A stretch of DNA of 56,451 bases from Candidatus Micrarchaeota archaeon. Its GTDB lineage: Archaea > Micrarchaeota > Micrarchaeia > Anstonellales > J096. Position numbers and translations under genes: made by a program. Of the stretch, positions 11,827 to 30,927 are shown in pieces. The DNA is taken from positions 1 to 56,451 of the forward strand of contig WAKO01000009.1 in the NCBI GenBank assembly GCA_015523325.1, given 5' to 3'. The notes beneath the pieces are model-generated. The model ran no database searches, was not told the origin of the DNA, and saw only the letters and a list, made by a program, of their open reading frames with translations. Position 1 is the first letter of the stretch, and every line of letters starts with the position of its first letter.

Positions 11827-13554
11827 CTACCAATTAACTATTTTCTGTAGAGGCAAGTTGTTCTCTACTCCTTTTAATAATCTCTCCTTATCATGATAAT
11901 AAAGCTTAACCACCTTTCCTACATCATCAATTCTAAATAGCTTTTGCTTAACCATCCATTTTAGGATGCTTTCTCTTATGTTCAAATCTAAATAGATCTC
12001 CTCTTCAGTCATTCCAGTAAAGAAATTAACCTTGTTTATGTATTCTATAGGAAGCTTTTTGAACTCAAAGCTATCGGTTCTGCTTCTATAGGACACTATC
12101 CTATCTATAGAGAAATCTTCTTCACTCCTTTGCATTATTGCTACCTCATAAGTTCTTCTCCTATTTGTTCTCCTATCCCTTCTTTGAGTAACAATAAAGT
12201 CTATTATCTCAAGCTCTGAAAGAGAAATGTTTATAGGATCTTCACTTAGCCTTTTTATTGCAACATACGCCGTATTTGCGTGGAATGTGGAATAAACACT
12301 ATGTCCAGTATGCATAGCCTCAAACATAACCTGTGCTTCTTCAGCCTTTCTAACCTCTCCAACTATTATTCTATCGGGCCTCATTCTTAAGGAGTTTATC
12401 ATTAAATCCAAAATAGTAACTGCCCCAAGCCCTTCTGGGTTTGGGGGCCTAGAAACTAAAGGAACCCAATTTTCAAAGTAAACAGGAAGTTGAATCTCCC
12501 TAGTATCCTCTATAGTTATTATTCTTTGGTCAGGAGGAATAAACATTAGAAGAGAGTTAAGCATAGATGTTTTTCCACTTGCAGTTCCTCCAACCACTAA
12601 AACATTCATTTCATAATGAAGAGCTTGCCATAATAGAGAGGCTGTTTTATAATCAAGTGTTTTATTATTCAACAAAACAGGAAGAGTTAATGGCTCTTCA
12701 GAGAACTTTCTTACAGTAATTGTGTTACCACTTAATGAAATTGGGAAAAGGGTTGCATTAATTCTCTCTTTTCCAGGCAAGTGAGCATCAAGCAAAGGGC
12801 TTAAAGTAGAGACATGCCTTCCCACTCTCCTCCCAATCCTTGCAATGTTCTCCAACACATCAGACTCTGACTCAAAGAACAAGTTTGTTTTCATCCACCC
12901 ATACTTTCTATGGTAAACTATTACTGAGGCTCTTGCCTTATTAACAACAACTTCCTCTAAAAAAGGGTCATGTAAAAGGTATTCAAGCCTTCCAAGCCCA
13001 AACATCTTAGCCCTAACCATTCCACAAAGGAGCTTTTTATCCCTTTGATTAAACACTAGCTTTTCAAGAATATTTTCTGTGATATTACATTGCCTTCTAT
13101 AAATCTTTATACTTTTTTCCTCTTCAGTTAAATTAACTGATTCTGGAGGAATTTGAGAAGAAACTATCTCAATTATCTCCTCCAAAAGAGAAAGAGTTGA
13201 AACCTTAACTCTTGGGGTTGTTATATAATAGAAAAGAGAATTATCAGGAAGCCTTATTATATTAACAATGCCCCAAAAATGCTTATTGTCCCCTTCTATC
13301 TCATAAGCTTCAACAACACTTCCTTGTGGTTTTTGTTCTTCTTCTTTTTCAGGAATTCTTATAGAGATATAAGTTGTGTTAAATATGGGGAGGAGAGGAT
13401 ATTTAACAGAAATCAAATCTCTTTTTTCCAATGTTTCTAAAATAAAATCCAATGACTCATCATCTAAACCTAGTTGCCCATAAATTGATGCAACGTTCAC
13501 TTCTTTATTAAGACCCTCTTCATAAACATCATCAACCTTAGTTTTTATCAGCAT
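11827..13554 (-). CDS. Type IV pilus/Tad assembly ATPase (PilB/CpaF/ArlI family) with N-terminal winged-helix extension, pilus locus 1
   Basis: Walker A GGTASGKT, ITIEDTRE, LRMRPDRIIVGEVR, MHTGH, TFHA; about 55 extra N-terminal residues. Confidence 0.93.
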   Translation of the reverse strand: MLIKTKVDDVYEEGLNKEVNVASIYGQLGLDDESLDFILETLEKRDLISVKYPLLPIFNTTYISIRIPEKEEEQKPQGSVVEAYEIEGDNKHFWGIVNIIRLPDNSLFYYITTPRVKVSTLSLLEEIIEIVSSQIPPESVNLTEEEKSIKIYRRQCNITENILEKLVFNQRDKKLLCGMVRAKMFGLGRLEYLLHDPFLEEVVVNKARASVIVYHRKYGWMKTNLFFESESDVLENIARIGRRVGRHVSTLSPLLDAHLPGKERINATLFPISLSGNTITVRKFSEEPLTLPVLLNNKTLDYKTASLLWQALHYEMNVLVVGGTASGKTSMLNSLLMFIPPDQRIITIEDTREIQLPVYFENWVPLVSRPPNPEGLGAVTILDLMINSLRMRPDRIIVGEVRKAEEAQVMFEAMHTGHSVYSTFHANTAYVAIKRLSEDPINISLSELEIIDFIVTQRRDRRTNRRRTYEVAIMQRSEEDFSIDRIVSYRSRTDSFEFKKLPIEYINKVNFFTGMTEEEIYLDLNIRESILKWMVKQKLFRIDDVGKVVKLYYHDKERLLKGVENNLPLQKIVNW

Positions 13555-13565
13555 TTTTCAACCCC

Positions 13566-14522
13566 CTACTCATCCAGAACTACTTTATTTTTTGAACCCT
13601 TCTTTAGCTCTCCTAAGGAGAGATAAAGTGCAGAGCTATAAGGAACTCTATCTCCCAAGTAAAGTTGTGAAACCTTATAGGAAGAAATACTGGTGTTTAT
13701 GTCTATTGTGCTATTTATATATCCTGTTATTGTGGAAGGTATTTGAACAATGTATTCATCATTTGGATTTCCTAAAGGATCTCCTACCAAAATTAATATC
13801 TTTCCTTCTGCTCCACAAATATTTTGACCTAGGTAGAAAGTGTAGTTTGCTGCCCCATTGTTTCCAACTGTTGTTGATTTTTCAAAGCATTTTGCTCCTC
13901 CAATAAAAGGATAGCAAACCCTAAAGTAAACAGGAACTCCATTAGGATCATAATTTGAAACACTTAAATTATCCCCATCAACAGGAAGGTTTCCTGTAAT
14001 GTAAATAGTTATATTGTATTGAGAAGGCCTACCAACATCAAAGTAATTTACTTTCATTTCTGAAATGTTGTAGATGGAGGTGTCATAATATTTTTTGAAG
14101 TAACTTGAAGAAGAACCAGATTTAGTTAAGAAATTTATCACAAAATAATCACTAAATTGATATACTGAAGAAAAATCAACAGAATAATTGATACCAACCT
14201 TTGATAAAGAAGATTTAACCTCTGAATCATAAGCCATAACATCAAAGTTGGTGGTTGTTCTTCTTATTTCTCCAAAAGCTTTAAACACAAATATGTCCTC
14301 TGTTTTTGGAGAGTAAGAAAGCTCTTCAAATCCCATCCTATTTTTTAACTCATCAATAATATCCTCATAATAAAAAGAAAGCCTCCTAAGTTTTTCTCTT
14401 GTAAGAATCTCCTCATCCTCTAAGGATTGTAAATAAACTAAAGTGTAGTAAAGCAAAGGTATAAAGAGCAAAAGGACTATCAAAACATTAACAAATCCTT
14501 TATTCCCCCTCATTTGAACCAC
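13566..14522 (-). CDS. Class III signal peptide protein (minor pilin/adhesin-like)
   Basis: NKG|FVNVLIVLLLFIPLL N-terminus; beta-rich C-terminus with Cys; lies in the pilus operon. Confidence 0.65.
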   Translation of the reverse strand: MVQMRGNKGFVNVLIVLLLFIPLLYYTLVYLQSLEDEEILTREKLRRLSFYYEDIIDELKNRMGFEELSYSPKTEDIFVFKAFGEIRRTTTNFDVMAYDSEVKSSLSKVGINYSVDFSSVYQFSDYFVINFLTKSGSSSSYFKKYYDTSIYNISEMKVNYFDVGRPSQYNITIYITGNLPVDGDNLSVSNYDPNGVPVYFRVCYPFIGGAKCFEKSTTVGNNGAANYTFYLGQNICGAEGKILILVGDPLGNPNDEYIVQIPSTITGYINSTIDINTSISSYKVSQLYLGDRVPYSSALYLSLGELKKGSKNKVVLDE

Positions 14523-29227: not shown

Positions 29228-29247
29228 TAACTAATTAATAACTAATA

Positions 29248-30927
29248 TTAGCCCCATAAATCCTTTATTAATTGGGAAAGTTTCCTCCTCTTCTCTTCAT
29301 ACTCTTTTATCTCTTCCTCAGTCAACTTCGTCATTTTTTCTAAAGAAGCTTTAGCTTCTTCCCTTTCTTCGGGTTTCCTTAGTTCTAAAAGAGCTATTTC
29401 TCTTCTAAGCAAATTTAAGGACTTGTTTATCCTTTCCAGCATTCTATACAATTCTTCAAATTCTTTCTCAATATGCATAACCTTCTCCTTAACCTTATCA
29501 ATCTCTCTAGACATCTCTATTAACTTCTTTGCCTCTCCCTTATCCAAGCTTTTTGCTTTCTCAATAATTTCTTTTAGTTTTTTCTCCATTTCCTCATACT
29601 TATTTTCCAAAGATTTTCTCTCGTTTTCAAGTTCATTTATTTGTTTAAGATAGGAACTAACACTATTTAATATCTTTTCTCTTATTTTTTCAAACGTTTT
29701 GAAGTTCTCTATTTCCTCATCAATTGTGGAAAATATATCTCCCGCTTCACTTGCCAAAGAAGTAGAAATTTCTTCAGCTCTTTTCTTCATCTTTCCTAAG
29801 TCATCTATAAGCTTATCAACTTCCTTAATCTTTTCAGCATAATGTTTTAGAGAGGAGAGCTCCTTAAGCTCATTCTCAACCCTATTTAACTTTTCCTTGA
29901 TTCCCTCAAACTTATCAAAAACTATCTCCTCTATATCTATAGACTCAAGGCTTTCCTTTAGAATTGAAAGAGTATATTTTAGCTCTTCTTCCAAATGCTT
30001 TGCTTTTTCAATTTCTTCCTCATACACAGCAAGATTTTCTTTTAACTCCTTGAAAGTCATCTCTTCAGAAAGTCTTATTGAGCTAATTCTCTCAAGACCC
30101 TTATTTATCTTCTCATATATTTCTTTTGCTTTATTTAAGTTTTCCTCAACACTTTTGTAAGATTCTAACTTCTCTGTTAGCTCTTGAAGAGAGCTCTTTA
30201 TATTTCCAAACTCATTCTCCAAATTTTCCACTCTTTCAACAACAGAAACAACACTCTCATCAATGTTAGCCAACTCAGCCCTTTTTTCATCAATAACTTT
30301 AATCAAAGAGTTTACCTCTTCTACATAGTTCTTAACCTCTTCCTTAATCTTAGAAATTCTTGAGAGCTTATCATTTATTTCTTCTATTTTACTCTCACTC
30401 TCCAAAGTGGTTAAATTCATCCTAATAACTTCTAAAGAGTCTTTTATTTCCTCAAGCTCAGAGAAAGAATCCTCTATTTTATCATAAATGTTAAGGTAGT
30501 CTTTTTCTATCTCAACCAATTTCTTTTCATAATCCTTATAAAACTCTGAGAATTTCTCAAGCTTTTCTCCATACTTTTTAATAAAATCCAAAAACCCTGC
30601 TCTTAACTTCTCAAGCTTATCACTTTCTTCCTTTACTCTATTCACAAGCTCAAAATACTTTTTGTCTAACTCTTTTCCTAAAGAAGAAACTTTTTCCTCT
30701 CTTCTCTTAACCTCTTCTTGTGTTGGTTCCTTCCAAACTAGAAAAACATCAGAAAGGGAATAATCCAAGCTTATTATCCCTTCTTTTTCAAGAAAAGAAG
30801 CCCACTCCTCAACAGTTGAAGCTGAAACACCTAAAATATGGGCAACCTCATTAAGCTCAACTCTCTTCTTCTCCTTAATTAGAGATATGAGCTTATCTAT
30901 ATCTGTGAAAATCACCTCCTTATCCAT
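29248..30927 (-). CDS. N-terminal winged-helix plus long coiled-coil protein
   Basis: IFTDIDKLISLIKEKKRVELNEVAHILGVSASTVEEWASFLEKEGIISLDY (wHTH pattern), then about 490 residues of heptad-like K/E/L/I sequence. No Walker motifs. Confidence 0.8.
   Translation of the reverse strand: MDKEVIFTDIDKLISLIKEKKRVELNEVAHILGVSASTVEEWASFLEKEGIISLDYSLSDVFLVWKEPTQEEVKRREEKVSSLGKELDKKYFELVNRVKEESDKLEKLRAGFLDFIKKYGEKLEKFSEFYKDYEKKLVEIEKDYLNIYDKIEDSFSELEEIKDSLEVIRMNLTTLESESKIEEINDKLSRISKIKEEVKNYVEEVNSLIKVIDEKRAELANIDESVVSVVERVENLENEFGNIKSSLQELTEKLESYKSVEENLNKAKEIYEKINKGLERISSIRLSEEMTFKELKENLAVYEEEIEKAKHLEEELKYTLSILKESLESIDIEEIVFDKFEGIKEKLNRVENELKELSSLKHYAEKIKEVDKLIDDLGKMKKRAEEISTSLASEAGDIFSTIDEEIENFKTFEKIREKILNSVSSYLKQINELENERKSLENKYEEMEKKLKEIIEKAKSLDKGEAKKLIEMSREIDKVKEKVMHIEKEFEELYRMLERINKSLNLLRREIALLELRKPEEREEAKASLEKMTKLTEEEIKEYEEKRRKLSQLIKDLWG

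Follow-up and report, generated by a model that had tools for sequence, protein, structure and literature searches.

The 56,451-nucleotide stretch of DNA analyzed here (the window; GenBank WAKO01000009.1, from a Candidatus Micrarchaeota archaeon) is contig C9 of a 24-contig, 0.70-Mb genome and carries three loci with ArlI/CpaF-type ATPases, designated ATPases 1, 2 and 3. The main finding was that the N terminus of ATPase 1, a putative type IV pilus motor, and the N terminus of a 559-aa coiled-coil protein encoded near ATPase 2 carry one and the same specific winged-helix (wH) module, as confirmed by profile comparison, and that this module is linked to pilus ATPases well beyond this genome. 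At roughly even odds (a probability of about 0.5), the module was interpreted as an adaptor for protein docking, through which scaffolds and sensors would connect to a DPANN-wide clade of pilus motors, rather than as a reader of DNA. DPANN archaea need physical contact with a host, and type IV pili are the leading candidates for making it. The coiled-coil proteins of DPANN pilus loci had been noted previously and were left unexplained. The presence at the start of these rods of a specific winged helix, found also on a paralogous motor and on CBS-domain sensors, reframes them as probable cytoplasmic partners of the motor and not surface attachment proteins. It also offers a concrete candidate interaction between a winged helix and an ATPase, together with a new domain family that is invisible to current annotation.

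When the two N termini were compared directly by BLASTP, the similarity was weak (28% identity over 43 aa, E = 0.003), and word-indexed homologue searches using these two N termini alone recovered zero and one protein. Since the BLASTP result was marginal, orthologues of ATPase 1, many of which retain the full N terminus, were gathered from 40 related genomes for a profile test. Profile A1 comprised 17 aligned N termini of ATPase-1 orthologues and no coiled-coil proteins, and profile A2 was a broader alignment of 29 sequences. Profile A1 aligned to residues 6 to 60 of the 559-aa protein with an hhalign probability of 97.8% (E = 1.1e-12). A search of the whole genome with the A1 hidden Markov model (HMM) retrieved ATPase 1 (1.1e-21), the 559-aa protein (8e-13), a 484-aa paralogue encoded on contig C15 (2e-10) and a 453-aa protein encoded next to the 559-aa protein (4.8e-6), and the generic winged helix-turn-helix (wHTH) proteins of the same genome reached only 2.5e-3 or worse. 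With the A2 HMM, three full members were matched over HMM positions 1 to 65, at 1.5e-23 (559-aa protein), 1.5e-21 and 6e-16 (ATPase 1), and the remaining matches were partial, at 1e-6 for the 453-aa protein and 6e-5 or worse for the generic wHTHs. The full members in this genome were exactly three, namely, ATPase 1, the 559-aa protein and the 484-aa paralogue on the other contig. Neither HMM matched ATPase 2 or ATPase 3. In the module signature, helix 1 contains TxID, helix 3 has a conserved Glu together with an aromatic or aliphatic residue, and LExxG(I/L)(I/V)x(I/V)xY runs into the wing.

A preliminary description of the window had proposed that a winged-helix module is common to ATPase 1 and the 559-aa protein and is lacking from ATPases 2 and 3. 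This was borne out, as the profiles gave significant similarity and related genomes encode the partner genes along with these ATPases; only its start coordinate, 13393, fell slightly short of the segment that encodes the module (Table 1). A generic winged-helix resemblance combined with a coincidental gene neighborhood could have explained the marginal BLASTP score and the lack of any Pfam match to the ATPase 1 N terminus. However, a profile built from ATPases alone separated the 559-aa protein from the generic wHTHs by about 10 orders of magnitude, the helix-1 TxID and the wing Tyr signatures are shared, and more than 70 genomes from several DPANN phyla repeat the linkage to ATPases. Chance resemblance is thus exceedingly improbable and was regarded as effectively refuted.

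The fold of the module was predicted with AlphaFold2 from the A2 alignment. The model (pLDDT, predicted local distance difference test, 86.4) consisted of three helices and a beta-hairpin in the order H-H-H-beta-beta, with helices at residues 6 to 16, 21 to 28 and 32 to 44 and strands at residues 48 to 51 and 62 to 65. The best Foldseek matches in the PDB were ArsR/MarR/HlyU-type winged helices (TMq, 0.75 to 0.80; root mean square deviation, 1.1 to 1.9 Å), with TMq values of 0.77 to 0.79 for the top ArsR/MarR-type matches. By this model, the module is a wHTH fold. No specific family for it was found in Pfam, NCBIfam or PDB sequence searches. In the scan of the 559-aa N terminus, the best match was to HTH_24, whose 21.2 bits lay under the cutoff of 21.9, and HTH_24 was matched at E <= 0.01 in only 8 of the 29 module members. 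Further matches below threshold were to MarR, TrmB and IclR. The T2SSE_N, MshEN and GspE N1E-type models matched neither residues 1 to 78 of ATPase 1, even at E <= 10, nor the full protein. The preliminary statement that characterized PilB, ArlI and TadA ATPases are not defined by an N-terminal wHTH held, in that no family model or solved structure was found to contain the module.

Among 1.84 billion cluster representatives searched, 976 proteins matched with E <= 1e-10, and relaxing the threshold to E <= 1e-3 raised the number to 3,569. All named representatives were labeled as "hypothetical," "CBS domain-containing" or "SbcCD" proteins of Micrarchaeota, Iainarchaeota and Aenigmarchaeota. Judged from these searches, the module defines an unannotated family of approximately 1,000 cluster representatives. 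The label "SbcCD ATPase subunit" carried by some relatives was deemed spurious. The high-ranking multirepeat representatives P0003, P0004, P0037, P0052 and P0120 were rejected as members because they consist of generic HTH units in tandem. The domain also exists in a multivalent version: the 657-aa protein P0002 (ENA metagenome) has five tandem full modules with K/E/P-rich linkers between them.

Linkage between the module and pilus motors was assessed in 41 sampled genomes of the same Micrarchaeota order, which formed an unbiased sample in which module matches were crossed with ATPase matches. The module was present in 41 of 41 genomes, at 2 to 5 copies each. Fusion to an ATPase-1-type gene accounted for 24 modules. 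Among the 87 unfused modules, 26 shared the strand of an ATPase from the ATPase-1/2 clade and were located no more than 2.1 kb upstream of it, a placement for which the chance expectation is roughly estimated at 2%. Counted by motor, 50 of the 73 clade ATPases had a module in cis or in the immediately upstream gene, and none of the modules in these genomes lay within 2.2 kb of an ATPase-3-type gene.

The linked modules were found in three forms. In the first, the module is fused to the N terminus of the ATPase, and orthologues of ATPase 1 with this same N terminus occur in many genomes of the order. In the second, it forms the C terminus of a CBS-pair (or other) protein. This CBS-wH form, a protein of 220 to 240 aa, combines a CBS pair with a module at the C terminus, and its stop codon overlaps or abuts the ATPase start in eight genomes; in a ninth, a 169-aa protein of a winged helix and a short coiled coil occupies the same position. 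In the third form, the module is N-terminal to a coiled coil (wH-CC). The wH-CC gene leads an operon that continues, directly 3' of it, with ATPase 2, followed by a variable glutamate/lysine-rich (E/K-rich) protein, two TadC-like proteins and a pilin, and the orthologue of the 453-aa protein is encoded divergently.

The three forms were then compared with the relationships among the motors themselves. A maximum-likelihood tree was built from the last 470 residues of 58 ATPases, excluding the module. The fused motors fell on one side, and the rest formed a clade with an "X-wH" gene immediately upstream (support, 97/90) and a clade with a wH-CC gene upstream (94/71). ATPase 2 was placed in the latter, and ATPase 3 was a long outgroup branch. 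The labels for module arrangement required 9 changes on this tree compared to a mean of 29 when shuffled. The tree thus showed that the three arrangements track three paralogous clades of ATPase sequences, and from the coherence of the labels it was deduced that the association between module and motor is old and paralogue specific.

The association was also observed outside the order. In nine further DPANN genomes, which were reached via relatives of ATPase 1 and whose labels include Iainarchaeum, Nanoarchaeia, Micrarchaeum and "Altiarchaeota," 16 of 22 modules were fused to or directly upstream of an ATPase, with other sequence preceding the module in some of the fusions. Genome G042 is labeled Nanoarchaeia, and in the Nanoarchaeota phylum to which it belongs the module was present in 34 of 61 sampled genomes. 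In the 27 module-positive genomes of this phylum that were cross-checked, nearly every copy was on the same strand and no more than 2.5 kb upstream of a clade ATPase. Seven of these loci were read, and each had a gene with the winged helix before genes for the ATPase and two TadC proteins, with a recognizable pilin gene in four of the seven. The leader was either a winged helix joined to a coiled coil, a winged helix joined to helical repeats (up to 1036 aa in all) or a split pair. Loci L120 to L122 illustrate the two less familiar leaders: in the split version, a 142- to 145-aa wH protein is followed by a separate 307- to 325-aa E/K-rich protein, and the 1036-aa leader comprises the module, long helical repeats and a proline-rich tail.

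These data were taken to favor a docking role. The module is covalently attached to one motor paralogue and is carried by the product of a neighboring gene in the others, and by Rosetta-stone logic it most likely acts at the motor. The proposed contact would be with the motor itself, at the ATPase N-terminal domain or the rim of the hexamer. ATPase 1 would use its own copy of the module, borne on a flexible acidic linker of about 15 residues, and the 559-aa rod would supply one in trans to ATPase 2, which would make the rod a scaffold or regulator in the cytoplasm that plugs into the motor. In other genomes, the CBS-wH proteins could be sensors of adenosyl-ligand or nucleotide type that occupy the same socket. 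The four-wH 453-aa protein, encoded beside the rod gene, is likely to be another partner of the rod. The preliminary description had inferred that a shared module links the motor to a coiled-coil scaffold. Its premise stands to the extent that the module is shared and linked to motors, but the operon partner of the 559-aa protein in relatives is the module-less ATPase-2 type and not ATPase 1. For this reason, a direct link between ATPase 1 and the 559-aa protein is only one of several docking models.

Several points weigh against this docking interpretation. Fusion and adjacency indicate functional coupling, and the binding partner could instead be TadC, the 453-aa protein, another winged helix or DNA. 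The nearest structural matches found by Foldseek were all DNA-binding regulators, and the charge contrast between the module and the ordinary wHTHs of the genome, described below, was only moderate. Every genome has a second wH-CC paralogue away from the pilus genes. Moreover, in genus g6, the closest genus with ATPase 1, the wH-CC gene does not adjoin ATPase 2. Because the module is N-terminal in the wH-CC proteins, it is not placed next to the ATPase in the way seen for the CBS-wH form. Many loci in the tree had been chosen for carrying the module, and the unbiased figures are the 41-genome linkage counts. A wider version of the docking interpretation was also formulated, in which a DPANN-wide clade of pilus motors has the winged helix as its universal "N0" domain, detachable and of socket-and-plug type. 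The rods (the published coiled-coil proteins discussed below, hitherto interpreted as attachment-like), the CBS sensors and, in Micrarchaeota, the four-wH linker would connect to the motor through it and together form a lattice in the cytoplasm by which these obligate symbionts position or gate their pili at the site of host contact. This wider version is speculative and was considered improbable. The preliminary suggestions that the system localizes pili at the host-contact pole, or couples DNA import to the chromosome, were supported by no result of this analysis.

Winged helices are known in both roles, with those of ESCRT-II/CdvB, the RPA32 C terminus and DDRGK1 binding proteins and that of FtsK gamma binding DNA on a hexameric translocase. 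The module gave weak, sub-threshold matches to RPA_C, the CdvB winged helix (2xvc, E = 0.008) and DDRGK1, none of which was significant; these illustrate the capacities of the fold and not membership in those families. Were the module a DNA-binding wHTH, the wH proteins would regulate or autoregulate the pilus operon, and the copy fused to ATPase 1 would tether the motor to DNA, possibly for uptake. The ArsR/MarR/HlyU-type neighbors of the fold and the sub-threshold matches to HTH_24, MarR, TrmB and IclR are in keeping with this, as is the first-gene position in the operon, which is typical of autoregulators. Regulators combining CBS and HTH domains do exist, and a coiled coil could serve for dimerization, as in Sso10a (4hw0, Foldseek rank 47). 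However, helix 3 has a mean net charge of -1.9 and a conserved Glu (the whole-module average is also -1.9), compared to a helix-3 charge of -1 to +5 in the genome's generic wHTHs, a contrast that is suggestive and not decisive. Both the module and the entire rod carry a net negative charge. When the window's pilus promoters were compared with that of the C15 paralogue, no common operator was found and only AT-rich k-mers were shared. It would be unusual for a transcription factor to be fused to a hexameric secretion ATPase across many separate lineages, and a 500-aa coiled coil is atypical of regulators. DNA binding, which the preliminary description had offered as one role of the module, is argued against by the acidic helix 3 and the lack of a shared operator and was judged unlikely.

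The second alternative concerns the 453-aa protein, for which an AlphaFold2 model was built from nine sequences. The mean pLDDT was 68, with ordered parts mostly at 83 to 94. Four wH domains of the H-H-H(-beta) type were predicted at residues approximately 1 to 75, 205 to 270, 300 to 375 and 376 to 453, along with two disordered acidic linkers (residues 76 to 205 and 270 to 300). The domains matched the module over helices 2 and 3 only (E values of 5e-9 to 0.06) and lack the helix-1 TxID, so they were classified as relatives and not as members; they have in common a distinct repeat signature, K(F/Y)GxxGxxVYxxIDGxxT. The four wHTH units of the preliminary description are therefore real according to the model, although they do not belong to the module family. 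Foldseek with this model gave nothing significant (the best was the Rpc39 winged helix of RNA polymerase III, E = 0.3), and an assignment to the kite, ESCRT-II or TFIIE type was dropped. The family of this protein was present in 40 of the 41 genomes, usually with its gene adjoining the wH-CC gene, including in g6, where the pair is not near ATPase 2.

In this alternative, which corresponds to the model of the preliminary description or a hub variant of it, the module might act as an address tag that binds either a second copy of the module or some shared third protein, for which the 453-aa protein and a cytoplasmic loop of TadC are candidates. It would gather ATPase 1, the rods and the CBS-wH proteins at one site without touching the ATPase core. 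Its occurrence on otherwise unrelated proteins would suit such a role, as would the status of the four-wH protein as the most constant neighbor of the rod gene, even where the ATPase is elsewhere, and the five-module P0002 is consistent with multivalent assembly. On the other hand, no four-wH gene was seen in the seven operons read in the Nanoarchaeota phylum, from which it follows that the four-wH protein is not a universal partner. In addition, the module stands directly N-terminal to the ATPase, whether within one protein or as the last part of the protein encoded just before it, and this placement is better explained by contact with the ATPase. A hub of this kind was considered doubtful, and contact between module and motor remained the preferred interpretation.

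The 559-aa rod comprises the N-terminal module, a long coiled coil and a conserved C-terminal motif. It has a net charge of -32 and no transmembrane segment (maximum KD19 hydropathy, 0.96) and is accordingly predicted to be cytoplasmic. No hydrophobic segment that could serve as an ArlX-type membrane anchor was found in it. An identity as SMC, Rad50 or SbcC was rejected because only the coiled-coil parts matched (49 bits against a cutoff of 567), there is no P-loop and the N terminus is a winged helix. At positions 29248 to 29310, the pilus-operon wH-CC orthologues share the C-terminal motif (K/R)RxEL(R/K)xLIKx(L/M)WE, which may be a second binding or docking site. The 484-aa paralogue (G000 C15:10487-11941, minus strand) has the module, a K-rich linker and a coiled coil but is without the C-terminal LIKxLWE motif, and its gene lies among those for ribosomal proteins and a methionine aminopeptidase. 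A second, unlinked wH-CC gene was likewise noted in many genomes among the relatives.

Accessory domains at the N terminus are well known in bacterial GspE/PilB motors, where N1E binds GspL and MshEN binds c-di-GMP. For the ATPases of archaeal type IV filaments (T4F), a 2026 survey in PLoS Genetics (PMC13705601) described subsystem-specific N- and C-terminal extensions and hypothesized that they are interfaces for accessory proteins; it called DPANN poor in T4F and mentioned neither winged helices nor coiled coils. The present arrangement resembles both cases in that an extra domain, thought to couple the motor to partners or signals, precedes the ATPase N-domain. It differs in that the domain is a winged helix and is also found detached, on scaffold and sensor proteins. 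For the rod, the nearest functional analogy may be the ArlX/ArlCDE proteins and KaiC-like ArlH around ArlI, which are likewise cytoplasmic coiled-coil or accessory proteins encoded with the motor. ArlX is, however, membrane anchored and has no winged helix, and the 559-aa protein has no transmembrane segment and gave no visible match to ArlX or ArlCDE models.

The closest published loci are those of Hamm et al. (2024, Nat Commun; PMC11291902), who described DPANN loci of a CpaF-like ATPase, TadC, pilins and large coiled-coil proteins (CCPs). That work covered cluster-2 DPANN and Undinarchaeota, not Micrarchaeota, and likened the CCPs to viral sigma-1 and nucleoporins. It reports no winged helix (the terms "winged" and "helix-turn-helix" occur 0 times), no fusion to an ATPase and no CBS-wH proteins. 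Compared by layout, the CCP loci are like the wH-CC/ATPase/TadC/TadC/pilin operons of the Micrarchaeota relatives and the Nanoarchaeota phylum. Makarova et al. (2016; PMC4858521) listed many regulators associated with type IV pili, including the coiled-coil arCOG07564 of halobacterial subclade 4F loci, which is intracellular and was proposed to be regulatory. They also noted subclade 4F ATPases in nanoarchaea and reported no winged helix on the ATPase. This protein and the rod, compared by description only, are both coiled-coil proteins of archaeal type IV pilus loci. No description combining a winged helix, DPANN, a pilus and a coiled coil came up in full-text literature searches. What was already known is the occurrence of DPANN type IV pilus loci with coiled-coil partners; what is new is the motor-linked winged-helix module and its three architectures. 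The term "undescribed," which the preliminary description had applied to the whole system, was therefore too strong, since coiled-coil DPANN pilus loci had been published (PMC11291902) and N-terminal ATPase extensions had been proposed as docking sites (PMC13705601).

The motors of the window were assigned as follows. ATPase 1 matched T2SSE (PF00437) with an E value of 8e-38, and its sequence contains GGTASGKTS, RPDRIIVGE and TGHSVYSTFHA, with the Walker A, Walker B, Asp and His boxes all present. Its residues 109 to 564 are 42% identical to ATPase 2. Against NF058587, the equivalog for the archaellum motor ArlI/FlaI, two ATPases scored 287 and 269 bits, below the curated cutoff of 550 bits, and the matches of ATPase 1 to the FlaI and TadA models of NCBIfam were also under their cutoffs. 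By these sequence criteria, the two are relatives within the ArlI family and not archaellum motors, because their loci carry pilins and two TadC genes and no match to archaellin or to ArlCDE/ArlX was seen. The features are listed in Table 1.

Table 1. Coordinates of the pilus-related features in the window
Feature	Position	Strand	Description
ATPase-1 operon	9865..15447	-	Three pilin-like genes (159, 155 and 318 aa), ATPase 1, two TadC-like genes (293 and 340 aa)
ATPase 1	11827..13554	-	575 aa; predicted winged-helix module, ~15-residue acidic linker, complete ArlI/CpaF-type secretion ATPase
Winged-helix module of ATPase 1	13363..13551	-	Residues 2-64; A2 HMM E = 6e-16, HMM positions 1-64
Pilin	21376..21837	-	153 aa; class III signal peptide
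Two TadC-like platform proteins, ATPase-2 system	24241..26139	+	280 and 348 aa; PF00482 T2SSF, E = 1e-18 and 5e-14
ATPase 2	26210..27718	+	502 aa; without module; T2SSE E = 5e-38 (Pfam)
E/K-rich protein	27737..29227	+	496 aa; between motor and platform genes
wH-CC protein	29248..30927	-	559 aa; N-terminal module, ~490 aa of coiled coil, conserved C-terminal motif
Winged-helix module of 559-aa protein	30724..30912	-	Residues 6-68
Four-winged-helix protein	31004..32365	+	453 aa; divergent from wH-CC gene
ATPase 3	52010..53341	-	443 aa; outgroup motor; no module in cis or nearby; negative control

The ATPase-1 operon was delimited from the T2SSF matches and from the N-terminal hydrophobic helices of its pilin-like proteins. 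It contains no coiled-coil gene, and its layout is identical in relatives G024 and G038. In the divergent promoter between this operon and a PIMT-like gene, three copies of AATTCATTA (+, -, +) were observed within 40 bp (positions 15455 to 15494). The whole window has 5 copies compared to 2.2 expected, and the triple is absent from the other pilus promoters. It looks like a candidate operator for a regulator.

The ATPase-2 operon is rearranged in the window compared to its relatives, with the TadC genes placed before the ATPase gene and the wH-CC gene in inverted orientation; in the relatives, the TadC pair is conserved downstream of ATPase 2. The divergent pair of wH-CC and 453-aa genes is still kept, near ATPase 2. 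The pilin, whose orthologues in relatives are the final operon gene, 3' of TadC2b, is displaced in the window by approximately 2.4 kb upstream on the opposite strand. Its N terminus is KGQTAMEYLMTYGWAI, followed by a hydrophobic helix (Kyte-Doolittle value, 2.79). The 496-aa E/K-rich protein had no family match in Pfam or NCBIfam. In relatives, a variable E/K-rich protein of 196 to 613 aa occupies the same position between ATPase 2 and TadC, and a short N-terminal motif, roughly F-x-E-[IL] ... Y/E-K, is kept across genera.

Elsewhere in the window, positions 38720 to 42619 contain an open reading frame of 1299 aa that had no Pfam match at E <= 0.001. At positions 34011 to 35023, 2 kb from the four-wH gene, a KaiC/ArlH-like protein of 219 aa (weak KaiC and FlaH matches) is translationally coupled to a 117-aa protein. 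A KaiC-like gene was also found in G019, approximately 3.4 kb from the four-wH gene, but not at the other ten loci inspected.

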